Origin: Patescibacteria group bacterium
GTDB lineage: Bacteria > Patescibacteriota > Minisyncoccia > Phycocordibacterales > BOKC01
DNA: 64,000 nt
NCBI GenBank assembly: GCA_038062955.1
Contig: JBBTWE010000001.1
Coordinates: 389,640-453,639, forward strand
Direction: 5' to 3'
Below the pieces are notes generated by a model. It made no database searches. It was not told the DNA's origin and saw only the letters and a program-made list of their open reading frames with translations. Shown here one piece after another: positions 54 through 56,064 of this stretch; the first letter of the stretch is position 1, and each line of letters starts with the position of its first letter. Made by a program: the position numbers and the translations under genes.

Positions 54-98
54 AAAAAAACTGACCCCAAGCCCGCCGAAGCAGACTAAGGGTCAGAG
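54..98 (-). terminator. Rho-independent terminator of the island-A gene
   Basis: GC hairpin ctgaccc-N22-gggtcag (63-98) followed on the minus strand by a T7 run (plus-strand A-run 54-60), 25 nt 3' of the ORF that ends at 123. Confidence 0.6.
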
Positions 99-122
99 TG
101 TCCAAGAAACAGAGGGTCAGCT

Positions 123-800
123 TCAGCTAACCACAGGTTCCGAGGGAGAAAGAACATTGCGAGAGAACACATAGAAGCCATCACCCCACTCGCACGAATC
201 CTCGACAGAACTCGCACACACGTGCCAACCGATGACGAGCCAGTACACGTCGACCACACGAAGCAGACCAGTTTGGTCACGGATGTAGAAGATGTCCGAT
301 AAGCCGTTCGTGAGAAGGACACCGTCTTCACCATTCCCCTGCATCTCCAACAAGGAGAACAACTCGAAGAGAGTTGTTTCAGCTTCCGCTTTACCACCGA
401 GCTCTTTGATGATCGGACCATCTGGGGAAGCCTGGAGCAACTTGTGGCAGCGGATGCTTTGTTCCATGATCGGATCTTCGATCTCGCCTTCGCCAGAGAG
501 GAAGTAGGACGTGAAGTTGCTTCCGATGTCCGAGATCTTCACCAAGGCGTCTGCCTGGGTGTTGACCACGAACTTGTCGCGAGCAACAAACTTGATAGTG
601 GTTGTGGGGACCTTGGTCGTACCGACGAGGGAAAGGATACTGGCAACAGACACACGCTCACACGAAGTCTTGGTGAGACCGAGCAAAAGAGCCTGGAGCT
701 TCGTCGGAGCGCCAATCCAATACTGCATAACCGCAGTATCCAAATCTGGCAGTTGTCTCGCAATACAAGCGATTAGCTCCGCAGTTTGATGATCCAACAT
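123..800 (-). CDS. Hypothetical protein, 225 aa, GC-rich island family member A (internally repeated RD-x-TG / W-x-IG motif)
   Basis: 225-codon stop-free frame in ~52% GC DNA; AAAGGA about 10 nt upstream of the ATG; own terminator; shares motifs with ORFs at 32935-33426, 43329-43661 and the broken frames at 55105-55807. Confidence 0.6.
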   Translation of the reverse strand: MLDHQTAELIACIARQLPDLDTAVMQYWIGAPTKLQALLLGLTKTSCERVSVASILSLVGTTKVPTTTIKFVARDKFVVNTQADALVKISDIGSNFTSYFLSGEGEIEDPIMEQSIRCHKLLQASPDGPIIKELGGKAEAETTLFELFSLLEMQGNGEDGVLLTNGLSDIFYIRDQTGLLRVVDVYWLVIGWHVCASSVEDSCEWGDGFYVFSRNVLSPSEPVVS

Positions 801-861
801 AGCGTTTTTTCCTTTCGGGTTTCGCTGTTGTTTTGCTTGCCGTACTAATCCAAAATGGACT

Positions 862-1003
862 TCACTACGGCAGAAGAAAGGTCGACGGGTTGGGCGTCGA
901 CACCTGTAGACGGCCCTCCCGATTTCTTAGATTGTACTCAATCTGTAGAAATCGCAGTGCCCTAGATTTATCGTGGCCATTTTATAAGAGACCTGTCTTC
1001 TGC
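862..1003. repeat. Structured 5' region of the island-A gene: 17-bp inverted repeat (ctacggcagaagaaagg / cctgtcttctgccgtag) flanking ~105 bp that contains the GC motif GGTCGACGGGTTGGGCGTCGACACCTGTAGACGG (880-912)
   Basis: Direct reading of inverted repeats; the motif recurs at 32865-32899 (inverted) and, diverged, at 11024-11064. Confidence 0.5.
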
Positions 1004-1043
1004 CGTAGCGAATCTTGTTTTTAATGAACAATTTTCTGCCACA

Positions 1044-1073
1044 ATGGTACCATCATCATGGTATGATTGTCAA
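1044..1073 (-). promoter_or_regulatory. Putative sigma70 promoter of the island-A gene, with a dyad overlapping the -10
   Basis: On the minus strand TTGACA (1068-1073), an 18-nt spacer, then TACCAT (1044-1049). The -10 sits in a 6-bp inverted repeat TACCAT-gatg-ATGGTA. Confidence 0.35.
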
Positions 1074-1099
1074 CCAAAATTTAATGACTTTAAATAAGC

Positions 1100-4119: not shown

Positions 4120-5322
4120 TTAATAGTTTTTAAGCCTATCTATTTTTTCGTGGATGCGGAGTTTTTCGAGCGCTTTGGCTTCGATCTGTCTTATACGTTC
4201 ACGAGTCACACCGAATTCCCTTCCCACTTCTTCTAGGGTATGAGTGATGCCATCCACCAAACCATGTCTCATCTCTAGGATTCTGCGTTCTTTTGGAGGT
4301 AAATCATTTAAGATATCTTTGACTTGATCTGCCACAATTCTTCTTGAAGTTTCTTCTGACGGAGAAAGAATTTTATCATCAGCAATAAAATCTCCTAAAG
4401 TGGACTTACCATCATCTTCATCGGGACCAGCCGGACTTTCTAACGACACCGTGCTTTGATCAATTTTTTCGATATTGTATATCTTATCGACATCCAAATT
4501 CATTTCAATCGCAATTTCTTCCTGAAGTGGGTCTCTGCCCAAATCTTGGGCTAATCTCCTCACAACCTGCTTGTATTTGGCAATCGTTTCCACCATATGA
4601 ACTGGTACTCTTATAGTTCTCGATTGATCAGCAAGAGACCTTGTAATGGCTTGTCTGATCCACCAAGTAGCATAAGTTGAGAACTTAAATCCCTTATTCC
4701 AATCAAATTTATCGACGGCTTTAAAGAGACCTAAATTACCCTCTTGAATTAAGTCGAGAAGCGTTAAATCTGGACTTCGGCCAACATATTTCTTGGCAAT
4801 AGAAACCACCAATCGAAGGTTAGAGCGAGCTAGAATATTTTTCGCCTCTTCATCCCCAGTTTGAATTTTCTTAGCTAATTCTTTTTCTTGAGCACCGGAA
4901 ATCAAGGGATATTGGCCAATTTCTTTCAAATACATTTGGATAGAATCGTGTGACAGAGAATCCTTGTAGATATCTTTGCCTTTCCCATTTTCTTCTGGGG
5001 TATCTAAAAGATTACCTCCCTCCAAAAGGTCTATTCCGGCATTGCTCAATTTTTCATAAAGCGAATCCAAAGACAAAATATCATCCTCAATAGTGGGAAA
5101 TTCTCTTAGAATTTCATCATAAGTTATAAAACCTCTTTCTTTTCCTTTCAAAATCAGCTTATCAATAGCCAAATCTATTTTTTTATTTTTGGCTGATTTT
5201 GGAAGATTTTCACTTTCAGGAAGCTCTTTGGTGGCTTTTTTGCGAGTAATTCCCTTAACCTTGGGCTTTTTTGCCTTTTTTATTTTTACTTTTTTTACTG
5301 CTTTTTTCTTTGTTTTTTTCAT
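4120..5322 (-). CDS. rpoD: RNA polymerase sigma-70 factor RpoD
   Basis: Regions 2-4 signatures: [63 protein letters not shown]; lysine-rich N-terminus. Confidence 0.95.
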
Positions 5323-5457
5323 CCCGTTGTGAAATTTCAGGTCGTTCTTCGCAAGCTCGGAACTATCCTGTTATTTTTTGGCTCATTCTTAATAAATAAA
5401 TTTAATTCTTTTATGCATTCCGTAGTAAGTATTTACAACCTGAAATTCTACTACGGG
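5323..5457. repeat. Hairpin repeat family 1 (CCCGTAGT-stem element), copy 1, directly abutting the rpoD ATG
   Basis: Terminal inverted repeats cccgttgtgaaatttcaggt / acctgaaattctactacggg around ~95 bp of AT-rich core; ~85% identical to 25849-26003. Confidence 0.7.
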
Positions 5458-7177: not shown

Positions 7178-7185
7178 AAATGTAA

Positions 7186-7307
7186 TTCAAAGGTCAAAAA
7201 TCAAAAGTCAAAATTTAAAGTTAAAAGTTATTAATTTAAAATAATTTTATTCTTTTTTACTTTTGAATTTTGAATTTCAATTTTGAGTTTTGCCTTTTGA
7301 ATTTTGA
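7186..7307. repeat. AT-rich long inverted repeat family 6 (aaaagtcaaaat / attttgactttt units), copy 1, in the dnaG-rpoC intergenic region
   Basis: Left arm 7186-7232 and right arm 7258-7307 are complementary; homologous to 27003-27116. Confidence 0.55.
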
Positions 7308-7337
7308 CTTGAGTATTATTTGTAATTCGTGTCGTGT

Positions 7338-10300
7338 TTACTTGAGCTTATCGAAGATTTTAGACTTTCTGCTTCCTGGGAAGCCGGTTCCAGCCGGAAT
7401 AAGACGCCCGATAATAACGTTCTCTTTGAGACCTGAAAGATCATCTGTGTAACCACGAACAGAGGCATTGATGAGAATTTTAGTTGTGTGTTGGAAAGAA
7501 GCGGCGGACAAGAAACTTTTTCTAGTTAGAGACACTTCAGTAATTCCCATCACAACTTTTTCTGCTTTGGCCTCATTTTTTCCAAGAGCTTTTATTTTCT
7601 GATTCTCTTTTTGGAGCTCGCTTTCTTCTACAACATCTCCAGGAGAGAAAGTTGAGTCGCCCGAATCTTTTATCTTCCTTCGAGAAAACATCTGTCTTAC
7701 AATGACTTCAATATGTTTTCTGGAAACCGCTTCCCCTTGTAATTCGTAAAGTCGGCTGATTTCGCGAATAATATAGTTTTCTGTTTTTTCCTTGCCGGCA
7801 TATTTGAAAAGTTCTCCAATATCAGCTGAACCGTCAGTAAGGATTTGTCCTTTCTTAACTTCTTGGCCAGCTTTTACAAGAATTGATCGGTGGAAACTTA
7901 CGGCGTATTCAGAATCTCCTTTTTTAGTTTTCTTTACTCCCTCTCCTGAAATAATAATGTATCGCTCTCCTTTTTCCTCCTTAATTTCAGAAATGATTCC
8001 GTCAACACGACTAATGACCGCGGCATTTTTAGGTTTTCTTTTTTCAAATACTTCCTCTACTCTAGGGAGTCCAGTGGTAATATCTCCACCAACAGACGCT
8101 GTACCTCCTGTATGGAAGGTTCTCATTGTAAGCTGGGTTCCCGGCTCACCGATTGCTTGAGCGGCCACAGTACCGATAGCTTCTCCTATTTCTATCGGAC
8201 GACCATTTCCAAGGTCAGCTCCGTAACAGAGAGCGCAAACGCCCTTTATTGATTTGCAGGAAAGTGGAGACCTTACAACAACTTCCTTCACACCATCGTT
8301 TTCAATCAAGATCGCGTCTTTTTTACTTATAAAACTTCCTTTCTTGAAAACATCTTTTCCATTTTGCAACACAACATCTTCAGCAATAAATCTCCATCTA
8401 ATATTTCGAGAAAGAGGGGTTTCCATTTCATTGCCTGATTTCTTGAAGATTTTAATTCCTTCCTTCGTACCACAATCTTCTTCACTTATAATTGAGTCTT
8501 GAGCCACGTCGAAGAGTCTCCTGGTTAAGTATCCTGCTTTAGCAGTGTTTAAGGCGGTGTCAGTCAAACCTTTTCTCGCTCCGTGAGTGGTAATGAAATA
8601 TTCGATAGGAGTCAATCCTTCCTTGGTAGAAGAAACCACAGGGAATTCAATGGTCTCTCCCGCTGTGTTTTGAATAAGACCTTTTATTCCAGCCATTTGG
8701 GTAATCTGGGAAAGAGAACCTCGAGCTCCGGAATTCACCATGTCATGCACGGAGCCTCTTGGATCAAGACTGCTTGGAATAATTTTCTCTATTTCACTTT
8801 TTGCCCAATGCCATATTTCAATATTTTTTCTTAGTCTTTCGTCAGTCGAGATAAAGCCATCATTGTATTGGCCAACAATTTCCTCCACTTTTCTCTTGGC
8901 TTCTACAATTATCGGACCCTTAGCTTCTGGGATTTTCACTTCATCAATACCCCAAGTAATACCAGCGTATGTGGCATATTGAAAACCAAAGTTTTTTACC
9001 TTATCAACAATATCTGGAATTTTTTCGATACCATATTTTTCAATCAAATCCTCGATGAGAGATGCCATCTTTTTTCGATCAATTTCAGCATTCACGAAAG
9101 GATAATCATTTGGTAAAACACTATTAAAGAGCAGTCTACCTACAGAACTTTCAAAAATACCGCTTTTGAATTCTTTGTATTTGGGGGTATCAGTGGCTAA
9201 AATTTTTATTTTGGCTCTAAAACCAAGTGCGCCGAAATCAAAAGTGGTAATAGCGCTGTTTGGATTAGAAAAATATTTTCCTTCTCCTTTTTCACCAGCC
9301 AACATTTTGGTCATCCAGTAACAACCAAGAATGATATCGAGCATTTTGGCGCTGATTATAGGATCTCCGCTTCCTGGTTTTAAGATGTTTTTATCGGCAG
9401 CCAATATTTCTTTTGCTTCAAGTTGGGCTTCTTCTCCAAGCGGCACGTGAACAGCCATCTGATCTCCGTCGAAATCAGCGTTGAAAGCTGTACAAACCAA
9501 AGGATGAATTTGAATAGCGTTTCCCTCAATTAAAAGTGGTTTGAAAGCCTGAATACCAAGACGATGCAAGGTCGGAGCTCGATTTAAAAGCACATACTTG
9601 TCTTTGATCACATCTTCCAAAATAGCCCAGACTTCTGGCACTCCTTCTTCAATAAGTTTGGAAGCGCCTTTAATATTGTAGGCTAGATCCATCTTTAATA
9701 TCTGACAGATAACAAACGGCCTGAAAAGTTCAAGCGCCATATGCTTTGGAAGTCCGCACTCATTCAGTTTCAGGGTTGGGCCAATAACGATAACTGATCT
9801 TCCAGAATAATCTACACGTTTACCTAAAAGATTCTGTCTGAAAAAACCTCTTTTTCCTTTCAAATTATCTGCAAGTGACTTGAGTGCTCTTTTTTGGGCT
9901 TGGCTTGCAACAATCTGGGTTGTCCCCTGTCTTAAAGTATTATCAATCAAAGCATCCACAGCTTCCTGTAGAATTCTTTTTTCGTTTCTTAAAATCACTT
10001 CTGGAGCGTTTATTTCTTTGAGTTTTTTTAAACGATTATTTCTATTTATTACTCTGCGGTAAAGATCGTTAACATCTGAAGTAGCGTAACGTCCACCATC
10101 AAGCGGAACCATTGGACGAAGTGCTGGAGGAATCACAGGCAGACGTAAAAGGAATGTCCACTCTGGTCGAACACCTGACTCGATCATCGACTTAACAAGA
10201 GAAATTCTCTTGCTTAATTTTTCTTTTTCAGCGGCGCCTGCAACTTCAAGATCTTTTTCTAAATTTACTTTAAGTTTTACAAGATCAACATCTTTCAAAA

Positions 10301-10970
10301 TTTTGTAGATTGCTTCTGCTCCGATTCCAGCTTCAAAGATTGTGCCGTATCTTAGAGAATGATTGTGATATAAAACCTCATCAAGCACTTGGCCTTCTTT
10401 GATGTCCTCAATTTCCCTCTTGGTTTTGAGCCACAATTCTTTTAAAGAATTTTTTTCTTCTTCTTTTCCTACGGCTTTTAACTTCAATTTGAATTCAGCG
10501 TCCAGGTCGCTCAAAACTTTCTTTCTCTCATCCTCCATGACACCAGTCACAATATATCCAGCAAAATAAATCACCTTTTCAAGATCGCTCGCAGAAATCC
10601 CCAAAATCATTCCGATTCTTGACGGTGTGCTCTTTAAAAACCAAACATGAGAAACTGGGGAGGCCAGTTCTATGTGGCCCATTCTTTCTCTTCGAACTAT
10701 AGAACGAGTTATTTCAACCCCGCATTTTTCACAGACAATACCTTTGTATCTAATACCGCGGTATTTTCCACAATAACATTCGTAATCCTTGTCCGGACCG
10801 AATATTTTTTCATCAAAAAGACCACTTCTTTCGCTTCTTTGTGTGCGATAGTTTATTGTTTCAGGCTTTGTCACTTCTCCAAATGACCATTCTTTTATGC
10901 GCTCGGGTGAAGCGAGTTTGAGTATTAAGCCTTCAAAATCATTAATATTGGAATATGTTTTTGATTTCAT
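7338..10970 (-). CDS. rpoC: DNA-directed RNA polymerase subunit beta' RpoC
   Basis: Zn-binding CYCGKYRGIRYKGIVCEKCGVEI, NADFDGDQMAVH catalytic motif; 1210 aa. Confidence 0.97.
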   Translation of the reverse strand: MKSKTYSNINDFEGLILKLASPERIKEWSFGEVTKPETINYRTQRSERSGLFDEKIFGPDKDYECYCGKYRGIRYKGIVCEKCGVEITRSIVRRERMGHIELASPVSHVWFLKSTPSRIGMILGISASDLEKVIYFAGYIVTGVMEDERKKVLSDLDAEFKLKLKAVGKEEEKNSLKELWLKTKREIEDIKEGQVLDEVLYHNHSLRYGTIFEAGIGAEAIYKILKDVDLVKLKVNLEKDLEVAGAAEKEKLSKRISLVKSMIESGVRPEWTFLLRLPVIPPALRPMVPLDGGRYATSDVNDLYRRVINRNNRLKKLKEINAPEVILRNEKRILQEAVDALIDNTLRQGTTQIVASQAQKRALKSLADNLKGKRGFFRQNLLGKRVDYSGRSVIVIGPTLKLNECGLPKHMALELFRPFVICQILKMDLAYNIKGASKLIEEGVPEVWAILEDVIKDKYVLLNRAPTLHRLGIQAFKPLLIEGNAIQIHPLVCTAFNADFDGDQMAVHVPLGEEAQLEAKEILAADKNILKPGSGDPIISAKMLDIILGCYWMTKMLAGEKGEGKYFSNPNSAITTFDFGALGFRAKIKILATDTPKYKEFKSGIFESSVGRLLFNSVLPNDYPFVNAEIDRKKMASLIEDLIEKYGIEKIPDIVDKVKNFGFQYATYAGITWGIDEVKIPEAKGPIIVEAKRKVEEIVGQYNDGFISTDERLRKNIEIWHWAKSEIEKIIPSSLDPRGSVHDMVNSGARGSLSQITQMAGIKGLIQNTAGETIEFPVVSSTKEGLTPIEYFITTHGARKGLTDTALNTAKAGYLTRRLFDVAQDSIISEEDCGTKEGIKIFKKSGNEMETPLSRNIRWRFIAEDVVLQNGKDVFKKGSFISKKDAILIENDGVKEVVVRSPLSCKSIKGVCALCYGADLGNGRPIEIGEAIGTVAAQAIGEPGTQLTMRTFHTGGTASVGGDITTGLPRVEEVFEKRKPKNAAVISRVDGIISEIKEEKGERYIIISGEGVKKTKKGDSEYAVSFHRSILVKAGQEVKKGQILTDGSADIGELFKYAGKEKTENYIIREISRLYELQGEAVSRKHIEVIVRQMFSRRKIKDSGDSTFSPGDVVEESELQKENQKIKALGKNEAKAEKVVMGITEVSLTRKSFLSAASFQHTTKILINASVRGYTDDLSGLKENVIIGRLIPAGTGFPGSRKSKIFDKLK

Positions 10971-11023: not shown

Positions 11024-11064
11024 GGGTCGAACTAATGATCGACACCTGCAGACAGACGGGTACC
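11024..11064. repeat. Diverged copy of GC motif family 5 in the rpoB-rpoC spacer (GGGTCGAACTAATGATCGACACCTGCAGACAGACGGG)
   Basis: Shares GTCGA-loop-TCGAC hairpin plus ACCTGyAGAC..GG with 880-912 and 32865-32899. Confidence 0.4.
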
Positions 11065-11066
11065 TT

Positions 11067-14000
11067 TTATTCTTTTCCTCGAGTAAATTTTTCTCGATCT
11101 TTAAAATTTCTTTTTCCAATATTATGCGAACCTGAAAGCTTAGAAACTTCTCCCGCTTTTAACTCAACATCCAAAGCTAGTCCACGCAGATTACTTAAAA
11201 GAACATTGAAGGAGACTGGGGTGTTAAGTTCTGTGATTTTTTCTCCTCTAACAATAGCGTCGAATGCGGCCGATCTTCCAACTATATCGTCAGATTTTAT
11301 GGTAAGCATTTCACGCAGAATGTGAGCCCCACCGTAACCCAAAAGCGCCCAAACTTCCATCTCTCCGAATCTTTGCCCGCCTCCTTGAGCTTTACCTCCG
11401 AGTGGTTGCTGGGTGATGAGAGAATAAGGACCGATAGAACGCATATGGATTTTATCTTCAACCATATGATGCAACTTCATGATGTACATGTATCCGATTG
11501 CAATAGGTTGTTCAAAAGAAACTCCCGTCCTACCGTCAAAAAGCTTGACTTTACCGCTCTCTGGAATTCCTGCGGCGACAAGTTCAGTTTTAATTTCTTT
11601 TTCAGTTGCTCCCAAGAAAGGAGGCACGATTGCCTGGTAATTTAAAGTGTGAGCGGCTAGTCCCAAATGCATTTCCAAAATCTGTCCGAGATTCATACGG
11701 CTTGGCACTCCAAGCGGGGTCAAAATTATATCAACAGGCGTACCATCTTCTCTAAACGGCATATCTTCTTCCGGCAAAATTCTTGAAATTACTCCTTTGT
11801 TTCCATGACGACCCGCTAGCTTATCTCCTACCGAAACGTTTCGGAGTTGAGCAATTTCTATATGAATTCTCTTGATAATTCCTGATTCCAATTTGTCACC
11901 CTTCTCTCTGGAAAATACCTGAACTTTGACAACTCTTCCTCTCTTTCCGACTTCCATTCTCTTCGAAGTATCCTTAACATCGCGGGCTTTTTCTCCGAAA
12001 AGTGAGCGAAGCAATCTTTCTTCGGGAGTAAGTTGTGTTTCTCCTTTTGGTGTAATCTTTCCAACCAAAATATCTCCTGGATCAACTTCGGCTCCCACTC
12101 TTACAATTCCATCTTCAGCCAAATTTTTGAGTTTGGTTTCTCCAACGTTTGGAATATCGCAGGTTGTAACTTCAGGTCCAAGTTTGGTATCACGCACATT
12201 TACCACGAATTCCTCGATATGGATGCTGGTAAATTTACTGTTTTTTACCAATCTTTCTGAAAGAATAATGGCGTCTTCATAATTAGCTCCTGACCAAGAA
12301 ATGAAAGCGACCAAAACATTTTGTCCAAGCGCCATCTCTCCTCGATCACTCGAAGAAACATCAGCTAAAACATGACCTCTTTTTACTTTTTGACCGACAT
12401 CAACGCTAGGACGTTGATGAAAATCTGTAAAACCATTGGTTCTGGAAAAATTAACGAGCTTATACTCTGTTTCTTCTCCTTTTTTATTTTCGACAGTAAC
12501 ACTTCGGCCGTCAACATATTTAACCTCGCCGTCTTCTTTTGAAAGAATAAGTCTTCCTGTATCTAAAGCTGATTCATGTTCAATGCCGGTTGCAACAAGA
12601 GGGGCCTCATGAATAATGCATGGAGTAGCTTGTTTCTGCATGTTGGAACCCATAAGCGCTCTGTTAGCATCATCGTGATTTAAAAACGGAATCATTGAGG
12701 TCGCAATAGAAAAAGCTTGCGCTGGCGACACATCAATGTAGTCAACTTTTTCTTTTACTACTAGGCCGGGATTTCCTTTGATTCTAACTTCCACATTTTC
12801 TATAGTGATTTCTCCATCATTATTATATGGGGTTGCGGCATGAGCGATTGTATACTTTTCTTCTTCAAAAGCATCCATGTAATCAATTTGTTTTTGAATC
12901 TTGCCGTTCTTTACTTTAGCGTAAGGAGTTTCAATAATTCCAAATTCATTGATTCTGGCGTAAAGAGACAAACGTAAAATGAGTCCTATGTTCTGGCCTT
13001 CTGGTGTATGAATTGGGCAAAGTCTTCCATAGTGAGAAGGATGCACGTCTCGCACTTCAAAACCCGCTCTAGCCCTGTTGAGACCTCCGGGACCCAATGC
13101 TGAAAGGGTTCTTAGATGTTCGATTTCTGAAAGAATATTTTCCTGTTGCATGAATTGTGACAACTGGTTGGTGGCAAAAAATTCTTTAATTCTGGCCTGA
13201 AGTGGTTTCGGTGAAATAAAATTTATAGGCAAAGTCGTCTCGGTGTCCACAATAGACATTCGATTCTGTATATTTCTTTTTATTTGAGCCATTCCAACTC
13301 TTATTTTTTGCTGGAATAATTCGCCAACATGCCTGACTCTACGAGAACCAAGATGGTCGATATCATCTTCTTTCGCGTCTGGAGTTGTGTTGAGCTTGGC
13401 AACATTTGTAATGATAATCTCAAGATCTTTTAGATCTATCACTCTTTTGTTTACATCCGCGCCATCAAGTTTTAGTCCAAATCTCTTATTGAACATATAA
13501 CGACCCACTCGAGATAAATCGTATCTTTCCTCGGAAAACATTCCGGTAAAAAATGATTTGGCGTTTTGTACAGTTGCCAAATCACCATCCCTTAGTCTTC
13601 GATGGATTTCAATTACCGCTTGGTCAACATTTTTAGCTGGATCCTTGTCCAGTGTTTTTTGGATAAAGTCTTTCGTCTCTTGATCTTTAAATAAAGCTAG
13701 GATTTCCTTGTTTGTTTCAGCCCCAAAAGCACGCAAAAGCGAGGTTATTGGGAATTTTCTTTTTCGATCAATTCTCACATAAATGACTCCATCAGCTTCA
13801 GTCTCGATTTCAATCCATGCACCTCTTCCTGGAATAATTTTGGCTCCAAAATAATTTTGACCTCTAATAACTTGGGAAGTAAACAAAACACCAAAAGATC
13901 TAGCGAGTTGAGGTACGATTACTCTTTCAATACCGTTTATAATGAAAGTTCCGTGACTGGTCATGAGAGGCAGATCAGCCATGAATATTTCTTGCTCCTT

Positions 14001-14315: not shown

Positions 14316-14458
14316 GCAATTTAAATAGGTAAAAAGTTGGGTCTTTAAACCTTTTCGACAAAATTATTAAATTTTTTATTTTTCCCCGAACACTAAGATT
14401 TTAAAAAGAAAGAAGTGAGAGAACTTTCAGATTCGGATGCAGACCGAGGCACAAGCGA

Positions 14459-14524
14459 GTCGGAAATTTTATATCACTTCGTGATAAAAAATCTCCCGAC
14501 ATGATTTCTATGGTGTAGAAATCA
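14459..14524. repeat. Twin-hairpin repeat family 3, copy 1 (GTCGG...CCGAC and GATTTCT...AGAAATC), in the rpoB leader region
   Basis: 62 of 66 nt identical to 33899-33964, with compensatory stem changes between the copies. Confidence 0.6.
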
Positions 14525-14870: not shown

Positions 14871-17800
14871 TTACGGTTGGCTGATTATCTTATTTCTTGT
14901 TATAGGGCCGAAATATCCTACTGCTGGACTAAGACCATTTAAGCGTTGAAATTTTATCAGCGCCACTTGGGTAAGATTTCCAAAATAAGTCCCCTCATTA
15001 CCTGGTGAACCAATGCCTGAAGAAGCAATAACGAATCCATGAGTATTCAAGAAGACTTGCAATGCTCGAACATCTGGCCCAACCGAACCAACGGTAAGGT
15101 CTCGAGAGAAGGTAGAACTAATGACGGGTGTCTGCAATCCCTGATTTGCTCGTTGTTCTAGCAGAGCCAAGAGAGTGGCTCGCAAACTTGTGAGAAGGTT
15201 CTGAAGTTCAGCAATGGTCATCTGACTTGTTGGTCTGTTAGGTTGATTGTTTCCTTGATTGTTGTTAGAAGCTCCACCGCCAGATGAACCACCTCCGCCG
15301 CCTCCCCCTCCTCCACCACCACCGCCACCAGTATTTGTATTTTCAGTCCTTCCTTCATCTTCATTAGACCAAGCCGAAGCTCCGATAGTATTCACTGCTC
15401 GGACACGATATTCATATGTTGTGTTCACTGATAGACCGGTATCGGTAAATGTTTGTGTATTGATTGGCAGATTTGATGCAGAAGAAAGAGAAGTAAATGA
15501 GTCTGGAGATATTCTTCTTTCAACTTCAAATCTGGTTTCATTGTTGCTGTTGTCGTTCCATGATAGGCGAAGTTCGGATGGACCAAGTACTGTAACCAAG
15601 AGAGAAGATGGTGCAGATGGAGCTGTTAGTTGTTCAACAACCAAAGGTAGTCTGTTACTAAACTGTCCATCAGCGTTTCGTACTCTGAAATCATGAGTGC
15701 CGACAGATAGCGAACCAGCTAGGAATTCGAATCTGATAACAGAAGTGCTTAGGACACTGGAAGTCTGGTTAGAACAATTTTGACCAGAACATCTTTGAAG
15801 AGTGGCGCCTGGGAAATCAAAACCTGAACCATAGAAATCGATTTGTCTGTTTTGATTGGATGATACGGTCGAAGGAGAGATACTTGCGAGAACTGGGGTT
15901 TGGGCAACAACTGTTCCTGCGGTTCCGCTTCCAACAACAGATATCCCTGCTCCACTTGTTGTGCCTTGAGCAACAGAAGACCATGCTGAAGATCCGACTA
16001 CATTGTATGCTCGGACACGATAGCTGTAGCTTGTGTTTGGGGTTAGATTCGTGTGAGTGAATGTGGTGACGCCTGCCGCGACTGTTCCTGCCGGTAACCA
16101 AGTACTTGCTGAAGTTAGTCGGTATTCAATATTGAATCCTTGTTCATTAGAGCTTGTGTCAGACCAATTTAGACGAAGTTGGGTAGAGTTAAGTGCTGTT
16201 ACTCCCAGATTAGATGGAGTAGATGGAGCTCCGGATTGCACAGTGAGAGTGTATGGAGTTGTCCTGACCAAAGAACCTGCGGTTGCAGTCAGAGTGAGAG
16301 GATATACAGCGACAGGTGTGGTTGTTAGGGTGGTGATGGAGAGAGTAGAAGTACAAGTTGGATTTGGTGTGCAAGAAGTTGGAACAAAAGAGAACGAGCC
16401 TTGGGCAGAAGTAAGACCGTTTGCTTGAAAACTGACAACTTCAGAAGCACCGGCTGTCTTTGTGACAGTGAGAGTTGTTTGGGTAGATTGTCCTTGTTGA
16501 ATAGAGCCTGATATTGGGTTTGTGGTGAGGTTGAAGTTGAAAGCAGTAACAGTTGTGCCCTGGGCTACGTTAGACCACGCGGAAGATCCAGCTGTGCCCA
16601 CGGCTCTTACATGATATTCGTAAGAAGTTCCAGCAGAGAGTCCTATGTCGGTGTAAGTGGTTGTGTTAGGGGGTAAATTTGATGCCGCTCCAATAATTGC
16701 AAATGTTCCGCTAGGCAATAATCTTCTTTCTATTTCGAAACGGGTTTCGTTACCACTATTATCAGACCAATTCAGACGAAGTTGTGAAGTACTCAAAGAT
16801 GTAATTATTAGATTTGATGGAGGGATTGGAGTGCTTTGTAAGGTAGTGCCAGTCGCAATACTAGACCATGCAGAGGCCCCAGCAGTGTTGTAAGCTCGCA
16901 CACGGTAGTCGTAAGAAGTATTGGAGAGAAGACCAGGATGAGTGAAGGAAGTGATACCTGCAGCCAGGGTGCTAGCACCCGGAACAGTTAGCCAAACAGA
17001 AGCGGTGGATGGTTTGTATTCTAGTGTAAATCCTTGTTCGTTGGTACTACTGTCAAACCATGTAAGAAGTATGCTCGTACTTGTTTGGCCAACAGCCACT
17101 AAATTAGTTGGCGCGTTTGGCGATACTTGCGCAGTAGAACCAGAAGCAACTGGTGTCCACGCCGAACTGCCAACAGTATTATAAGAACGCACCCTATAAT
17201 CATAAGAAGAATTTGGCACAAGACTTGAATGAGTAAACGTATTAACGCTTGCCACTACTGTGCCTGCGGGGAGCCAGGTGCTTGCCGAAGATAATTTGTA
17301 CTCTATATTAAACCCTTGTTCGTTGGTGCTGTTGTCATTCCAAGTCAAACGTAACTCCGACGAACTCATTGTTGTAATTATTAGATTTGATGGCGGGTTG
17401 GGTATTGTTTGTGAAGTTGTACCAGAGACAGTGGAAGACCACGCTGAATTGCCAGCTGTATTATGAGCGCGTACTCTGTAATTATAAGTGGCATTTGCGG
17501 TCAAATTAGAATGTGTGAATGTGGTCACACCTGCCCCAACCGTACCCGCCGACAACCATGTGCCAGAAGAAGCTAATTTGTAATCTATATTGAATTCTTG
17601 TTCGTTGTTACTGTTATCGTTCCAATTTAGACGAAGTTCTGATGAACTCACTGTTGTTACCGTAAGACCAGATGGAGCACTTGGTGGGTTAGACGGAGTC
17701 CCTGCTTCAAAATAAAGTCCCCACATAGCATCAGCGAATTGACTACTATACCCGCCCCCATGACCCACCATGTGGAGATTTGGAAATCTACCTATACCAT

Positions 17801-19466
17801 TTGCGGGATTAGTATCTAGAACACAATTACCAGGACTGCCGCTAAGTGGTCCGTAAGTAACTCCGTACGCGGAATTTGAAGGGGCTCCTCCTGAAGTTGG
17901 ACTCGTAAGAGAACATGTACCATTTCCTGGACACGGAAAAGAGACAGTTCCTGAACCTGAACTATAAGTTGCAACCGCCGAACTGCATGCGGCTCCTGGA
18001 GTGCTTCCTCCAACACAGACTCCAGGCGCTGGAGCACAAACATCTGGTTGTGTTACTGCACCAGAAGGAACCCATCTTGCTAAGTAATCAATTGATAACT
18101 GGTTATTCCAAACATTAATTCCTCCGGGCAAAAGAATGGTCGCCAAAGTTCCACCTACGGCATCATTTGAGAATGTTTGCTGATAACCGTTAAGAGGATA
18201 AAGACCCCCATCAATATACCGATATGGATCAATACAAGTTTTTGACCCAGGATCAGTATTATGAAGAACCGTCCAATAAACTCCATCATTACAGTACTGT
18301 ATTTCTTGTGAAGCTACAGGAACACCTGTCCTGTTTAAGGTGGCAATACTGTTCTCTCCGAAAACAGCTAAACCGCTACCACTTACAAAATTTTTCATTG
18401 CTTGATTATTTAAAAGTATTCCCGCGAAAGCGATTGGCGCTTTTCTTCCATTTTCATGACCTCCTCCACCAGCAGTGCTGTAGTCTCCTCCATTTAAAAC
18501 GACACCGTAATAATCAATTCCTGCCTGAACATAGTTAATGATTGCATCCATCTTTAGGGACAAAGAGTCATTTAAAATAATACGCAAAGCTGCATTCCCA
18601 GTATTCAAAGCAATATCCCCTCCGTACGCCTGCATATTTTTATCAGGACGGATTCTGCCAAATTGCCATCCAGGGTAATCCAACTGAACTCTTCGAAAAT
18701 TGCTTTCGACGGTGGCAAGGGATGGAATAGTAACTCCGCTTGGTGGAGTCAAAGAAGGGAGCAACCCCACCTCAAGATTGAGAGTGCTATAAAGTGTTTT
18801 TTGAGTCCCAGCAAACCCTGGTCTGAATGAATTTGTTCCACTACTTGTGGGAATACTTGTGAGTACAGTAAGAACAGCGGCGGTATCAACATAGCAAGTT
18901 TGACCAGGATTATTTTCACAAACGGGAGATACGTCTGAATTAGAAATTGTTTTAATGATAGACGATGGTGTAGTGATAGTAATAGGAAGTGATGGAACTA
19001 GAGCAGCATTATAGGCATCACCACGAGAATCATAACCTTGTGATGTAAATTGTGCTGGATTAATTTGAAAGCCATTTCTTCCACCAGAAAAATTTGGTGT
19101 GATGCTGGTAATTGTGACCGGCGAAACAACCCACCAGTCCCCATTCACAAATTGTCCGCATTCCACAGATTGAGAAAAAGTCCAAGTAATTCCATATTGA
19201 GTGACAAAATCGCAAGTTGGAAGATCTGGACCATTTTCTTCTGGAACTGGTTGAGAAGGAAGTATTGGTATGTTTGTTGAAATGGGCGCACTTCCTTGAT
19301 TTCCATCTTCATCAACAACGAGGACACTTAAGAAAGACAGGCTTAAGTTTTTAAGGTCTATCTGTTTTACCCCAATGCCATTTATTAAAACAAATGAAAA
19401 TGTAAAAACGATAACAATCAAGAGAACTGTGATGCTAAATAATTTTTTCATCTTTTTTCCTGACAT
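14871..19466 (-). CDS. Giant secreted or cell-surface protein (1531 aa): N-terminal signal/TM, large beta-rich domain, about 8 fibronectin type III repeats, poly-Gly linker, C-terminal peptidoglycan-binding (PG_binding_1-like) domain
   Basis: Hydrophobic N-terminus LFSITVLLIVIVFTF; repeated ~90-aa units LRLNWSD.S.NE.GF.IE...Y.YRVRA.N..G.S.WS; GGGGGGGGGGGGGG linker; C-terminus FGPITR / LQ..LN..GF motif. Confidence 0.85.
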   Translation of the reverse strand: MSGKKMKKLFSITVLLIVIVFTFSFVLINGIGVKQIDLKNLSLSFLSVLVVDEDGNQGSAPISTNIPILPSQPVPEENGPDLPTCDFVTQYGITWTFSQSVECGQFVNGDWWVVSPVTITSITPNFSGGRNGFQINPAQFTSQGYDSRGDAYNAALVPSLPITITTPSSIIKTISNSDVSPVCENNPGQTCYVDTAAVLTVLTSIPTSSGTNSFRPGFAGTQKTLYSTLNLEVGLLPSLTPPSGVTIPSLATVESNFRRVQLDYPGWQFGRIRPDKNMQAYGGDIALNTGNAALRIILNDSLSLKMDAIINYVQAGIDYYGVVLNGGDYSTAGGGGHENGRKAPIAFAGILLNNQAMKNFVSGSGLAVFGENSIATLNRTGVPVASQEIQYCNDGVYWTVLHNTDPGSKTCIDPYRYIDGGLYPLNGYQQTFSNDAVGGTLATILLPGGINVWNNQLSIDYLARWVPSGAVTQPDVCAPAPGVCVGGSTPGAACSSAVATYSSGSGTVSFPCPGNGTCSLTSPTSGGAPSNSAYGVTYGPLSGSPGNCVLDTNPANGIGRFPNLHMVGHGGGYSSQFADAMWGLYFEAGTPSNPPSAPSGLTVTTVSSSELRLNWNDNSNNEQEFNIDYKLASSGTWLSAGTVGAGVTTFTHSNLTANATYNYRVRAHNTAGNSAWSSTVSGTTSQTIPNPPSNLIITTMSSSELRLTWNDNSTNEQGFNIEYKLSSASTWLPAGTVVASVNTFTHSSLVPNSSYDYRVRSYNTVGSSAWTPVASGSTAQVSPNAPTNLVAVGQTSTSILLTWFDSSTNEQGFTLEYKPSTASVWLTVPGASTLAAGITSFTHPGLLSNTSYDYRVRAYNTAGASAWSSIATGTTLQSTPIPPSNLIITSLSTSQLRLNWSDNSGNETRFEIERRLLPSGTFAIIGAASNLPPNTTTYTDIGLSAGTSYEYHVRAVGTAGSSAWSNVAQGTTVTAFNFNLTTNPISGSIQQGQSTQTTLTVTKTAGASEVVSFQANGLTSAQGSFSFVPTSCTPNPTCTSTLSITTLTTTPVAVYPLTLTATAGSLVRTTPYTLTVQSGAPSTPSNLGVTALNSTQLRLNWSDTSSNEQGFNIEYRLTSASTWLPAGTVAAGVTTFTHTNLTPNTSYSYRVRAYNVVGSSAWSSVAQGTTSGAGISVVGSGTAGTVVAQTPVLASISPSTVSSNQNRQIDFYGSGFDFPGATLQRCSGQNCSNQTSSVLSTSVIRFEFLAGSLSVGTHDFRVRNADGQFSNRLPLVVEQLTAPSAPSSLLVTVLGPSELRLSWNDNSNNETRFEVERRISPDSFTSLSSASNLPINTQTFTDTGLSVNTTYEYRVRAVNTIGASAWSNEDEGRTENTNTGGGGGGGGGGGGGGSSGGGASNNNQGNNQPNRPTSQMTIAELQNLLTSLRATLLALLEQRANQGLQTPVISSTFSRDLTVGSVGPDVRALQVFLNTHGFVIASSGIGSPGNEGTYFGNLTQVALIKFQRLNGLSPAVGYFGPITRNKIISQP

Positions 19467-30053: not shown

Positions 30054-30104
30054 AAAAAAAACCCTGGTCCTCCCACCCACCGTCGCTTGAAGGGGAAGGA
30101 CCAG
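30054..30104 (-). terminator. Rho-independent terminator of the island-E fragment
   Basis: Hairpin ctggtccttcccc-N17-gggaggaccag followed on the minus strand by T9. Confidence 0.55.
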
Positions 30105-30232
30105 AGTCGAGAATCAATATCATTGTCTGCGTGCCAGCTTTCAAGACACTGACTCTCTATCTAACCACACGAAGCACATCTTCCTGATGGTTCAGCCTGG
30201 AGCAATCCAGACCACCAGAAAGCATCTATCTT
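30105..30232 (-). other. GC-rich remnant (island E): probable 3' fragment of a family-A/B-type gene, or alternatively a ~175-nt sRNA
   Basis: ~50% GC; residual frame MLSGGLDCSRLNHQEDVLRVVR resembles the C-terminus of the 32935-33426 product (SCGGLDHFRYARQV); extended -10 TGaTATAAA upstream. Confidence 0.35.
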
Positions 30233-30347: not shown

Positions 30348-30430
30348 AGTTCTATGCATGCCATGATAGCCTCTGACAGGTGTTTTACCACGGCATTTGT
30401 TTATGCTAATTAATAAAGAGAAAAAGTCAA

Positions 30431-32665: not shown

Positions 32666-32828
32666 TAAATTACAGATTCACGATTCATGATTCAAGAATT
32701 TAAGATTTCCCATTCATGAATCGTGGTTCTTGAATCTTGAATCTATTTTATAACGAAATGGAAAAACAGGCACTATCCAAAAAGATTTAAGATTTACGAT
32801 ATATGATTTACGATTTGAAATTCAAGAC

Positions 32829-32867
32829 AAAAAGAAAGGGCGACCATGGTTTTAGCCTTGGTCGCCC
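32829..32867 (-). terminator. Rho-independent terminator of the island-B gene
   Basis: gggcgacca-N12-tggtcgccc hairpin followed on the minus strand by TTTCTTTTTG. Confidence 0.6.
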
Positions 32868-32899
32868 GTCTACAGGTGTCGACGCCTAACCCGTCGACC
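32865..32899. repeat. GC motif family 5 copy (reverse orientation) in the 3' UTR of the island-B gene
   Basis: Reverse complement GGTCGACGGGTTAGGCGTCGACACCTGTAGACGG differs at 1 position from 880-912. Confidence 0.55.
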
Positions 32900-32934
32900 C
32901 TCGTTGTTGTTCTCACTGACTGGTTGTATATTGA

Positions 32935-33426
32935 TCACACGATCGGCAGCACAGCCGACACTTGCCTGGCATACCGGAAGTGGTCGAGCCCACCGCAGGA
33001 CCACCCCCACTGCCCGCTCGAATCGCGACGCAGAATGAGCACGCAACGACTGCCGCTCGGGTCGAGGAGAACATCACCGAAGAAGTCGAGGTAAGTGATG
33101 TTCTGTGTTCGGAACAATGTTTCGAGCACACTATTCTCCTTGAGGGCTTCCCAATCTCTCCAGAGACCGAGGAAGACATCGGCACCCAGACGGATCTTGT
33201 TGCCAGCCTTGAGACGTTCGAACTTCTCTTCGCAGGTGATTCGTATCTCTCCCTGCTTGAGGCAAGAGACGAGTTTCACCTTGGAGAAATCGACAGATTT
33301 CAAACCGTCCTTCAGTGAATCGTGATCCTCAAAGACGAGTTTCCACTCTTCACTCAAAAAATCCTTCACGTCGAATGGAACGGCGGTGACGATGAGATTG
33401 CTGGATGGAGTTGCTGACTGACACAT
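32935..33426 (-). CDS. Hypothetical protein, 163 aa, GC-rich island family member B
   Basis: AAGGAGG 5 nt upstream of the ATG; ~54% GC; FGDVLLDPSGSRCVLILRRDSSGQWGW matches the family motif; TGA stop. Confidence 0.6.
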   Translation of the reverse strand: MCQSATPSSNLIVTAVPFDVKDFLSEEWKLVFEDHDSLKDGLKSVDFSKVKLVSCLKQGEIRITCEEKFERLKAGNKIRLGADVFLGLWRDWEALKENSVLETLFRTQNITYLDFFGDVLLDPSGSRCVLILRRDSSGQWGWSCGGLDHFRYARQVSAVLPIV

Positions 33427-33620
33427 AACACACCTCCTTGATGTGTTTGGTAGTTGATTTGTGGCTTAGCGAAATTGTCTGCCTCATCGGCAGATAAACT
33501 TTGCCACAGCAGGAGATAGCTCTCATTTAAGAGAGCGAGCATCTGCTGTGGCAAAACCCGCCTTTGTTCAACTACGGCGTGGCAAGTCAGTGAGTTTTGA
33601 ATGAACAATTTTCTGTTTTT

Positions 33621-33649
33621 AGAGTACACCCATTCGTCTATTTTGTCAA
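33621..33649 (-). promoter_or_regulatory. Putative promoter of the island-B gene
   Basis: Minus strand TTGACA-aaatagacgaatgggtg-TACTCT; the -35 plus AAATAGAC is shared with the island-D promoter. Confidence 0.4.
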
Positions 33650-33688
33650 CCCCGTAGTGAAATTTGCCCAGCAAATTCTACTACGGGG
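33650..33688. repeat. Hairpin repeat family 1, short form, immediately flanking the island-B -35 box
   Basis: ccccgtagtgaaatttg-cccagc-aaattctactacgggg. Confidence 0.55.
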
Positions 33689-33792
33689 TCAAGCAAAAAC
33701 AGATACACAAAAAACCTAGTATTTTAGGCATATTTTAGATTTTCCTAGCCCCTACCGCGAATGACAAAACTCGTCGAAATCATAGTTTTTGA

Positions 33793-33854
33793 GAGACATT
33801 GCGCAGGCTGTCGAGCCGAGCATAGCAAAAATCTAGCAAGATTTTATGCGCGTC
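33793..33854. repeat. Repeat family 4 copy (ACATTGCG...GAGCATAG.AAAAAT.TAGCAA.ATTTTAT.CGCG)
   Basis: Homologous to the core of 61234-61326. Confidence 0.45.
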
Positions 33855-33898
33855 TATCAAAAACTTATGATGAGAAAGAGGTTTGTAATTCACAACTA

Positions 33899-33964
33899 GT
33901 CAGAAATTTTATATCACTTCGTGATAAAAAATCTTCTGACATGATTTCTGTAGTGCAGAAATCA
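33899..33964. repeat. Twin-hairpin repeat family 3, copy 2, ending at the rnc stop codon
   Basis: GTCAG...CTGAC versus GTCGG...CCGAC in copy 1: a compensatory pair change. Confidence 0.6.
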
Positions 33965-43155: not shown

Positions 43156-43184
43156 TTGACTTTAGTGACATACCATGATACATT
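43156..43184 (+). promoter_or_regulatory. Putative promoter of the island-C gene
   Basis: TTGACT, 17 nt, TACATT; the spacer shares ATACCATGA with the island-A promoter. Confidence 0.4.
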
Positions 43185-43328
43185 ATAAAAAGCTGGCTTT
43201 CGAGCCATTTTACGAAATTGATAGTTCTTTAAACAAAGTTGGTGCGGGATTTTAGAGTAGAAACAATTCTAAGCTGAAATCCCCCACCAACTCTATTTCA
43301 GAGAAGGTTTTTCGGGATAAGAGGAAAA

Positions 43329-43661
43329 ATGTACAAATACGATCTGAAAGATTGGGTGATCACCTTGGTGATGTGTGTTGTGGTGGTGATTGTTTTGCGT
43401 CTTTCTGCCGATTACTTCTTTCCATCAACGAGAAGTTTGGAATATGTGGTCGGTAGTGATACAGAGAAGGCCATCAACCAAGTTCTTGGTTCATCTAGAG
43501 AATACCGACTGGTCACCGAAGACGGGATGGTGGCGAAGGATCTCATCCCTAGCCACACGCTACCCGATCTTGGAAGTCAGAAGTTCGTGATCATCGTGGT
43601 GAACGATCCAGACACAGGTACGCTGAAGCGATTCACCTACCTTCCGTCGCAATCTCGTTGA
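43329..43661 (+). CDS. Hypothetical small membrane protein, 110 aa, GC-rich island family member C
   Basis: N-terminal TM VITLVMCVVVVIVL; TEDGMVAKDLIP...VIIVVNDPDTGTLKRF matches the family motif; followed by its own terminator. Confidence 0.6.
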   Translation: MYKYDLKDWVITLVMCVVVVIVLRLSADYFFPSTRSLEYVVGSDTEKAINQVLGSSREYRLVTEDGMVAKDLIPSHTLPDLGSQKFVIIVVNDPDTGTLKRFTYLPSQSR

Positions 43662-43683
43662 CCCCTTCTCACCCCGCTCAATC

Positions 43684-43727
43684 GCCCGCGCAACTTCGCA
43701 AGAAGCATGCCGGGCGGTTTTTTTATT
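43684..43727 (+). terminator. Rho-independent terminator of the island-C gene
   Basis: cgcccg-N21-cgggcg hairpin plus T7. Confidence 0.65.
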
Positions 43728-51049: not shown

Positions 51050-51065
51050 AAAAAAATAGGCACTA

Positions 51066-54925: not shown

Positions 54926-54973
54926 CCCCCACACCTTTAATTACAAATTTATTGTAATTAAAGGTGTGGGGGT
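54926..54973. repeat. Perfect 21-bp-stem palindrome upstream of rplY (cccccacacctttaattacaa-attt-attgtaattaaaggtgtggggg)
   Basis: Direct reading; may be an operator or a bidirectional terminator. Confidence 0.5.
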
Positions 54974-54992
54974 AAACCCTTTATTGTAGAAT

Positions 54993-55029
54993 AAAAAATC
55001 CTCGCGACAGTTGAACTGCGCGAGGATCT
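54993..55029 (-). terminator. Rho-independent terminator of the island-D transcript
   Basis: atcctcgcg-N12-cgcgaggat hairpin followed on the minus strand by TTTTTTATT. Confidence 0.55.
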
Positions 55030-55104
55030 GGGGTCTGCGGATTATGCAAGAGTCTAATCCGTCAGCGAACAAAGCGAGAAACGACAAACGCTACAGCACA
55101 GGGA

Positions 55105-55807
55105 TCAAGAGAACTCAACCGGACAGTCCTGATGTTCCCAGTATGGAATGCCGGCCAAGAAGCGCAAACTGTACATGCCGTTCGGAAGAAGAGCACCCTT
55201 CGGAAGATTCATGATTCCAGCCTGCTGTTGCGGAGCAGGCGGAGACGAGGGGACAACGGATGAACCCTCCACATTTCCATCATTGCTTTCGTGCACGCCA
55301 ACACCTCCCACCGAAAGAACATTCTGCCCATTTTACGTGGGCACTTTCCGGAACCTGCCGGAAACAGTTTGTCTCAACGCTGAGACGCAGCATCTATTCC
55401 GCTAGTATGCTACCAAACCCCCCTCTATTTGTCAAAGGATATCTTTTGTGTCATAGATTTGATTTAAAATGAAAACGCCACGATTATCCAGTTGGATTTT
55501 CGTGGCGTTCTTCCCGGGAGTGGAGTTGAAGCTCACCTCACAGGTTCGCAAATCACCGCGTGGGTGTATTACGGACAGGGGTGTTGAAAAACCCCTTATT
55601 GGTCTTCGTACAAGTGCCATCACATCTCCCTTGTTCCAAGGTGGCCAAAATGCGCGCAAATTTCACCTCGCCTTCTTCGTAGAAGATCTCTTGGAGCAAA
55701 TGAGCGTGGCTTTCACCATCGCATCCGTAATACCACTCGAGACGTCCACCATCCGTCGTAATGCCAGGAAGTTGGCTGTTTGCGTAGATGCGGTAACTGG
55801 TGTTCAC
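55105..55807 (-). pseudogene. Frameshifted member of the GC-rich island protein family (island D)
   Basis: Three overlapping minus-strand frames. Frame 1 IYANSQLPGITTDGGRLEWYYG matches the member-A N-terminus IACIARQLPDLDTAVMQYWIGA. Frame 2 DVMALVRRPIRGFS matches A ADALVKISDIGSNF. Total span of 233 codons is close to A's 225. Confidence 0.45.
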
Positions 55808-55934
55808 TTCTGTTTCCTTTGCACTTAAGTGCGGCTGGAATTGATGTCAGTGTTTCCTGCGACGCAATATACAAGAAAAATCCGGTCTATTGCGTCGCAA
55901 GAAAGCTAAGCAGTATCAAAGAACTACTATTTAC

Positions 55935-55963
55935 AGTATATACTTTTACAGTCTATTTGTCAA
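55935..55963 (-). promoter_or_regulatory. Near-consensus sigma70 promoter of the island-D transcript, with a dyad over the -35
   Basis: Minus strand TTGACA, 17 nt, TATACT; the -35 lies in the loop of the dyad AGTCTAT-tgacaa-ATAGACT. Confidence 0.45.
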
Positions 55964-56064
55964 TAGACTTATATGTTCAAGAATAAGGCTTTTTTAGGAG
56001 ATTAGATGGATTAGATGAACTAGAGGAGATAGGAAACCTAGTACCTCTACTCCCTCTAACTTTT

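Follow-up and report, generated by a model that had tools for sequence, protein, structure and literature searches.

The reverse transcriptase (RT) of a diversity-generating retroelement (DGR) copies the RNA of a template repeat (TR) and misincorporates opposite adenines, and the cDNA takes the place of the variable region (VR) of a target gene by the process of mutagenic retrohoming, so that AAY codons are turned into NNY codons within a fixed scaffold. Here we analyse a window of 64,000 nucleotides from a Patescibacteria group bacterium (contig JBBTWE010000001.1 of assembly GCA_038062955.1, positions 389,640 to 453,639), in which five GC-rich islands are dispersed. Two of them, island A (54..1073) and island B (32829..33650), both on the minus strand, very probably hold orphan DGR variable-protein genes, with VRs that were presumably written by a target-TR-RT cassette and are most likely frozen, the other three islands being unrelated to them.

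DGRs are abundant in the candidate phyla radiation (CPR) (PMC8144416, PMC5758913), and the closest known system is that of the DGR variable proteins of CPR/Patescibacteria, namely those of cellular DGR clade 2 of Roux et al. 2021 (PMC8144416) and of the 'CPR set', with ungrouped or UVR-type VRs, of Wu et al. 2018 (PMC5758913). A and B are orphan genes of this already known kind. As with the CPR proteins, their products are small, of otherwise unassigned function and with a C-terminal VR; their homologues have the target, TR and RT in this order on the same strand, and TR and VR differ from each other at adenines; and their families are cellular rather than phage-borne, with groundwater Patescibacteria as hosts. 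Unlike the CPR proteins, A and B of the window are without a TR or RT in the 74 kb covered (the 64-kb window and 10 kb to its left), a consensus promoter and a structured leader precede each of the two genes, and B lacks the N-terminal ~50 residues of its family.

Two further comparisons can be made. The targets Mtd of Bordetella phage BPP-1 (1YU0) and TvpA of Treponema denticola (2Y3C) have the C-type-lectin fold, and A and B share with them the C-terminal AAY-to-NNY rewriting within a fixed Trp/Gly scaffold; by contrast, there is no detectable sequence similarity to them, and the fold similarity is weak, with nothing significant in Foldseek. No avd-like ORF (open reading frame) is present in L001, the only homologous cassette for which the ORFs were listed, no systematic search having been made. 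Remote DGR targets are also known in other lineages (PMC5758913). A and B resemble the remote targets of Treponema denticola and Legionella in that the VR-bearing genes lie far from any RT; by contrast, for those targets the matching TR is in the same genome and diversification has been demonstrated, whereas the VRs of A and B are invariant in the sampled population and have no TR in the 74 kb.

Cassettes of relatives and the adenine footprint

Island A, with a GC content of 50.4%, is a single transcription unit on the minus strand. It starts with a promoter at 1044..1073 (TTGACA-18-TACCAT, with a TG extension) and continues with a structured 5' leader (801..1040), where a 16-bp closing stem (CGCUACGGCAGAAGA / UCUUCUGCCGUAGUG) encloses a domain of ~115 nt and which gives an RNA fold z-score of -5.4, with no match in Rfam. 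ORF A (123..800; NCBI AAB534_02055) then encodes a protein of 225 aa of target family A, the VR of which (156..269, residues G178-N215) aligns to the TRs of relatives. After ORF A, at the 3' end, comes the terminator hairpin (54..96), a CTGACCC...GGGTCAG stem followed by T7, which is conserved with that downstream of the target gene of L001. A search with ORF A gives 215 homologous clusters (E<=0.01), with ~45-64% identity among the best 120 of the 215, and the AlphaFold2 (AF2) model of ORF A has a mean predicted local distance difference test score (pLDDT) of 85.

Island B, with a GC content of 50.5%, is likewise a single transcription unit on the minus strand, with an orphan, N-terminally shortened gene of target family B. 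Its promoter (33621..33649, TTGACA-17-TACTCT) is followed by the 5' leader (33427..33620), by the ribosome-binding site (RBS) GGAGG 6 nt ahead of the ATG, and by ORF B (32935..33426; AAB534_02130) encoding 163 aa, with the VR at 32941..33071, where the footprint relative to the closest TR, that of locus L085, is seen. The terminator (32829..32867, GGGCGACC...GGTCGCCC, then a T-run) is common to island F, which lies outside the window and is described below. ORF B has 20 homologues, mostly of ~214 aa and with 42-57% identity, and its AF2 model has a pLDDT of 93.7, with nothing significant in a Foldseek search against the PDB. The first-pass annotation, which was made from the letters of the window without database searches, had taken ORF B as a shortened member, and this holds in that ORF B is without the ~50 N-terminal residues of its own family. 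All hosts named in the records of the two families are Patescibacteria.

Homologues of A and B sit in canonical cassettes, with the target, a ~350-nt spacer, the TR and the RT on one strand, and in ~40% of the loci of the two families the C-terminal ~120 nt of the target recurs ~480 nt downstream as a TR that differs almost solely at adenines. In L001, of family A, the target lies at 10001-10714 with its VR at 10555-10668, the TR at 11031-11144 and the RVT_1 gene at 11509-12543, and the 114-nt VR/TR repeat has 15 mismatches, all at TR adenines and none elsewhere. Among the genomic loci of family A a TR is present in 33 of 76, ~480 nt downstream and with A-specific mismatches (A/other, e.g., 15/0, 18/0 and 22/0), and an RT in ~30 of 76 (32 of 81 entries are RT-positive, with the L001 locus counted twice). 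Among the metagenomic loci of family B a TR is present in 31 of 80 and an RT in 20, and in L085, the best of these loci and the closest relative, the VR and TR differ at 7 adenines and at no other position. The earlier view that no function could be assigned to these proteins is thus superseded, and the suggestion of a contingency family came close to the truth, DGR targets being programmed hypervariable genes.

The window's own VRs bear the same footprint. VR-A is identical to the relatives' TRs at 85% of the non-A positions and at 34% of the A positions (p = 8e-7), and VR-B to the TR of L085 at 79% and 34%, respectively (p = 5.5e-6), i.e., the mismatch is 66% at the A positions and 15-21% at the others, with NNY codons where the TRs have AAY. 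The variable codons of VR-A are all NNY. In the family alignments, the residues in the hypervariable VR columns are NNY-encodable in 97.6% of cases for A and 91.8% for B, compared with 69% and 78%, respectively, in the variable columns elsewhere. In both alignments the C-terminal ~40 residues consist of invariant Trp, Gly and Val interleaved with near-limitlessly variable columns, and variable columns almost confined to NNY-encodable residues within a fixed scaffold are the hallmark of adenine-directed DGR mutagenesis of AAY codons. By sequence comparison, then, A and B belong to families that sit in canonical target-TR-RT cassettes, both VRs carry the adenine footprint, and both proteins are homologous to proteins paired with a TR and a DGR reverse transcriptase. 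The recurring motif that had been noticed in A and B is the scaffold of beta-strands that leads up to the VR and runs through it; the two do share a functionally meaningful C-terminal module.

Frozen targets or diversification in trans

It is proposed that the VRs of the window would have been written in the past by a target-TR-RT cassette and that the A and B genes would now stand alone, each with a strong sigma-70 promoter, a structured leader and a terminator. Their products would be small ligand-binding proteins with the last ~40 residues, i.e., the VR, rewritten by mutagenic retrohoming, and most likely A and B are frozen orphan targets expressed as binding proteins of fixed specificity. 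This is favoured over the less likely case of a DGR at another site of the genome with A and B as its remote targets because there is no RT or TR in the window and the adjoining 10 kb and because the VRs are identical in all population contigs.

The data on these two points are as follows. A tblastn search with the RT of L001 finds no DGR RT in the window. Since ORF A is directed towards the left end of the window, the 10 kb of left flank available in contig L082 were examined as well, and there neither tblastn with the same RT nor the gene calls, which contain no RVT_1, give an RT; after A this flank holds DsbA, an RNase H-like gene, HisRS and TruB. In the window plus 10 kb, no TR for VR-A or VR-B is found by an adenine-tolerant ungapped scan and a low-stringency self-BLAST, and there is no A-biased repeat pair, so no cognate TR of the same genome differing only at adenines and no nearby DGR-type RT are present within the 74 kb. 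A degenerate VR/TR pattern search for the TR in a genome contig collection that does not contain this genome gave 0 matches. The sequence of the window also occurs as ~391,931-455,930 of CAYIIC010000001.1 (703,865 bp; GCA_964363395.1, a Patescibacteria metagenome-assembled genome from Hainich groundwater), and several Hainich H43 groundwater assemblies carry it. In the comparison of these consensus assemblies from several Hainich samples, which involves no reads, VR-A is identical in 3 of 3 population contigs (L082-L084) and VR-B in 5 of 5 (L165-L169), the few differences between the contigs all lie outside islands A and B, and no VR polymorphism of the kind expected from ongoing diversification is seen.

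Several points weigh against the proposal of frozen orphans of a DGR cassette. The membership of A and B rests on homology and a statistical footprint rather than on a cognate TR/VR pair; the search for TR and RT covered, of the 704-kb genome, the 64-kb window and 10 kb to its left; and the consensus contigs cannot exclude VR variants of low frequency. Moreover, the low adenine content of the VRs (11-12%) is expected because of A-to-N mutagenesis, but the GC-rich gene body is not explained by VR adenine mutagenesis alone.

By contrast, it can be supposed that A and B are active remote targets, diversified in trans by a DGR whose RT, with one or two TRs, would lie at another place of the 704-kb genome. 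There are documented cases of targets that lie more than 100 kb away from the RT (PMC5758913), the genes of A and B are intact with strong promoters, and the codons of VR-A have stayed clean NNY without evident drift. In families A and B, about half of the loci are without TR or RT within 6 kb, a proportion that seems high if all of them were dead. If this supposition is true, however, a separate TR would be needed for each of A and B, and none is present in the 74 kb, and across the population contigs of several Hainich samples neither VR shows any difference. We thus consider diversification in trans unlikely, though it is the strongest of the alternatives, and retain frozen orphans as the preferred reading.

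Two GC-rich islands, F and G, are located 4-7 kb to the left of the window, and neither resembles family A or B. Island G (L082 14760-15404) has an ORF of ~210 aa, an N-gap and three differences between samples, each of which is an adenine in L082. It was considered as an active VR and rejected, the protein having no VR-like C-terminus and no TR being present, so that the differences are taken as ordinary strain polymorphism.

Composition, leader and junction of the islands

Three features remain novel here: a GC richness specific to the targets, a scaffold of leader and hairpin that recurs between islands, and a junction that behaves as a hot spot. The islands had been described as dispersed promoter-to-terminator cassettes of deviant composition between housekeeping genes, and the data on GC, promoters, terminators and neighbours bear this out. 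The GC contents of the remaining three islands are 49.2% (30054-30232), 45.3% (43156-43727) and 48.3% (54993-55965), so the enrichment is real, with the backbone of the window at 38.8% rather than the ~36% given before. Only A, B and the 55-kb island are large, clear GC islands, and the composition alone is not unique to the islands, because large genes also contain stretches of 47-51% GC (at 8.1, 15-21, 42, 44 and 52.6 kb). Perfect promoters of the form TTGACA-N16-18-TAnnnT occur at five sites in the 64 kb, four of which belong to A (1073), B (33649) and, twice, the 55-kb island (55963 and 55435), in agreement with what had been claimed for the island promoters, and the fifth lies upstream of rpoB. 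The GC-stem/T-run terminators that had been attributed to the islands are readable at the 3' ends of A (54-96), B (32829-32867) and the 55-kb island (~54990-55030). The islands are flanked by a UvrD/AddA-type (UvrD/PD-(D/E)XK) helicase and DsbA, by RNase III and SMC, by a PKD protein and GyrB, and by L25 and a 2-hydroxyacid dehydrogenase, and the core genes around them include sigma-70, DnaG, RpoC/RpoB, RNase R, SMC, RNase III, GyrB and L25. Integron-type gene cassettes are rejected, the islands being single between core genes, spread over 56 kb and each with its own consensus promoter; integrases were not searched for systematically.

For A and B the GC content at third codon positions (GC3) is 0.63-0.65 versus 0.29-0.35 in housekeeping genes, and the coding strand has 20-22% adenine versus 34-37%. 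In 24 complete cassettes of family A, the mean GC content is 55.5% for the target, 55% for the TR, 38% for the RT and 43% for the flanks, and in cassettes of family B it is 48% for the target body, 63% for the VR, 52% for the TR, 34% for the RT and 40% for the flanks. Over dozens of Patescibacteria cassettes, the DGR targets and TRs are 14-17 GC points above the adjacent RT and flanks, with GC3 about twice that of the host and with a lowered content of adenine on the coding strand. A simple foreign origin, as had been read from the deviant composition, is argued against because the co-inherited RT has a host-like GC content (38%) and the target (55%) does not. Note also that among viral contigs there is one distant match for A and none for B, and a phage origin is unsupported because the families are nearly absent from them.

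A, B and island F (L082 17040-17830), the latter with a 141-aa ORF flanked by inverted copies of a 34-nt element, have in common the transcript-start motif CAGAAAATTGTTCATT[AC]AAAAC and leaders that are closed by a long stem. The 34-nt element of A (880..913) consists of CCGTCTACAGGTG followed by a GTCGAC-N9-GTCGAC hairpin on the transcribed strand, and it is 97% complementary to 32866..32899, i.e., the inverted element of B, located 35 nt past the stop codon of ORF B; further copies are present at both ends of island F (L082 17166-17199 and 17729-17762). The element thus forms the leader apex in A and F and stands inverted directly after the ORF in B and F, ahead of the common terminator. It could be a small mobile or regulatory RNA or DNA element, and neither the element nor the leader of A has a match in Rfam. 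When the leader, the 34-nt element and the terminator were sought in all foreign loci, the sole match was a 64-nt segment of the A leader (915-978), which is 95% identical to an insertion in L085 (6724-6889), a complete family-B DGR of another organism. This insertion is unique to L085, is placed in an otherwise conserved spacer upstream of the TR, and two of the three differences form a compensatory pair.

It is noted, as a separate observation, that in family-B DGRs ~250 nt upstream of the TR are strongly conserved and non-coding (L085 6600-7007, with equivalents in L131, L104, L107 and L161; e.g., GGCAGTAGGTGAATACGCGGGAGATCA), with an own -10-like box past the terminator of the target. This region presumably forms the 5' portion, a structured one, of the template RNA of the DGR.

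The junction between RNase III and SMC (window 32666-33961) holds B here, an orphan A-family gene in L021 (4991-6645) and in L037, and nothing in L150 (10239-10339). In L021 the junction also carries a toxin-antitoxin pair (Phd/RelE-like), and drift of its A-family gene is suggested by a GC content of ~47% and non-NNY residues in the VR. Since the content of the junction differs among relatives, the islands are accessory insertions at a recurrent hot spot, in keeping with the earlier claim in so far as they are not positionally conserved core genes.

One may go further and suppose that the promoter, the long-stem leader and the 34-nt element form a mobile or regulatory module that captures DGR targets and small genes at intergenic hot spots, perhaps tying the orphans to a DGR acting in trans, and that the two-fold GC3 excess and the adenine depletion of the whole target gene, not shared by the co-inherited RT, are perhaps a long-term signature of adenine-directed mutagenesis or of protection from it. 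We regard this as speculative and quite improbable.

Somewhat less probable still is the idea of the first-pass annotation that the five islands all represent decaying copies of a single cassette family of effector or immunity type, which duplicates and was acquired laterally. The islands do have their composition in common (GC3 of 0.55-0.65 versus 0.29-0.35 in housekeeping genes) as well as consensus promoters, the leader, the 34-nt element and the terminator are common to A, B and island F, and the content of the junction differs between relatives. However, no pair of island proteins has any sequence similarity. Pairwise BLASTP among the 225-aa (A), 163-aa (B) and 110-aa (43-kb) ORFs gives E values of 0.12 or worse, the hidden Markov models (HMMs) of families A and B each match their own ORF only in the six-frame translation of the window, and hhalign gives a probability of 6% for the profile of family A against that of family B, so that A and B represent two separate families and the shared ~40-aa motif is statistically undetectable (E at least 0.12 in BLASTP). 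In addition, the ORF of the 55-kb island is an intact member of another family, that of the 43-kb island is an ORFan, the RT of complete cassettes has a host-like GC content of 38% versus 55% for the target, and viral contigs contain hardly any members of the families. As regards the protein family, the reading of one cassette family is largely refuted.

The other islands and neighbouring repeats

The other three islands are small genes or RNA/non-coding stretches unrelated to A and B, with only the composition and partly the promoter type in common with them. Contrary to the first-pass annotation, the 55-kb island does not represent a frameshifted A, nor the 30-kb stretch a 3' stump of A, because the family HMMs match only their own ORFs, also in six frames. 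The 55-kb island instead contains two small units on the minus strand. The first is an intact gene (55553..55807, with the promoter at 55935-55963) for a Cys-rich protein of 84 aa with the conserved pattern GC.G..H...CD.TC, which belongs to an unnamed family of 54 representatives, mostly of 76-105 aa, and has no match in Pfam or to the HMMs of A and B. The second (54990..55435, with the promoter at 55407-55435 and the terminator at ~54990-55030) is GC-rich, ~400 nt long and likewise not of family A or B; it has at most a 63-aa ORF (55108-55296) behind the RBS GGGAGG, or it may be a non-coding RNA, with a weak fold signal (z = -2.2).

The 43-kb island holds on the plus strand a 110-aa ORF (43329..43661; AAB534_02170) with an N-terminal hydrophobic helix, between the gene of a PKD-domain protein and that of GyrB. 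It had been regarded as a member fused to a transmembrane segment; instead it is an ORFan, with no homologue but itself in 5.8 billion proteins, no Pfam match and no match to the HMMs of A and B. The stretch 30054..30232 (minus strand), located between the convergent RNase R and SMC genes, is structured and terminator-ended. The minus strand of 30050-30400 gives a fold z of -8.1 with its two terminators included, the SMC terminator being followed by a stretch of ~250 nt that ends in a second strong terminator, and it has no Rfam family at threshold and no protein similarity. It may be a small RNA. A search in Pfam with all island ORFs gave no match, and a search in Rfam at gathering and permissive thresholds (the window, and the A, 55-kb and 30-kb islands) gave only a tRNA-Thr and sub-threshold hairpin noise. 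The 84-aa, 63-aa and 110-aa ORFs and those of islands F and G were sought as accessory genes in 160 DGR loci and none was found.

GC-rich islands in AT-rich genomes are often RNAs, and that the islands here would be structured non-coding RNAs, with ORFs that are artefacts of stop-codon-poor, GC-rich sequence, can draw on the A leader and the 30-kb stretch, which fold far better than shuffles (z of -5.4 and -8.1), and on the second 55-kb unit, which has no convincing ORF, but we give it almost no credence in general, with no matches in Rfam, though 54990-55400 and 30054-30300 may be RNA, and it is ruled out for A, B and the 84-aa ORF by their 215, 20 and 54 homologues of conserved length, by an RBS at the proper distance in all three, and by the confident AF2 models of A and B.

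Other repeats in the window are noted here in their own right. Two tandem giant paralogues on the minus strand (14871-19466, 1531 aa, and 19501-23877, 1458 aa; GC content of 44-48%) have Fn3/Ig-like repeats, Gly/Ser-rich tracts and a C-terminal peptidoglycan-binding domain, and a 300-nt repeat internal to the giant proteins (20200-20499 and 20848-21147) is 99% identical. Two intergenic repeat pairs (5318-5448 and 25844-25974, 88% over 132 nt; 14458-14524 and 33898-33964, 91% over 67 nt) precede unrelated genes, the sigma-70 and RNase III genes among them, and may be shared regulatory or leader sequences. In addition, AT-rich intergenic blocks of TCAAAAG/TTTTGA-type repeats, mutually inverted, are present at 7182-7310 and 26976-27096.

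Returning to the preferred reading, that A and B are orphan DGR targets that are most likely frozen, two anonymous hypothetical islands would become binding proteins written by a DGR and uncoupled from their retroelement. A and B belong to two sizeable and so far unnamed target families of Patescibacteria (more than 215 and more than 20 clusters, respectively). Pipelines that require an adjacent RT miss remote DGR targets (PMC8144416), and orphan targets would likewise escape them; a simple marker by which DGR targets can be picked out of AT-rich CPR genomes is their specific GC richness (55% versus 38% for the RT). With orphan targets making up about half of both families, the question arises whether episymbiotic CPR bacteria keep "frozen" specificities or diversify them in trans.

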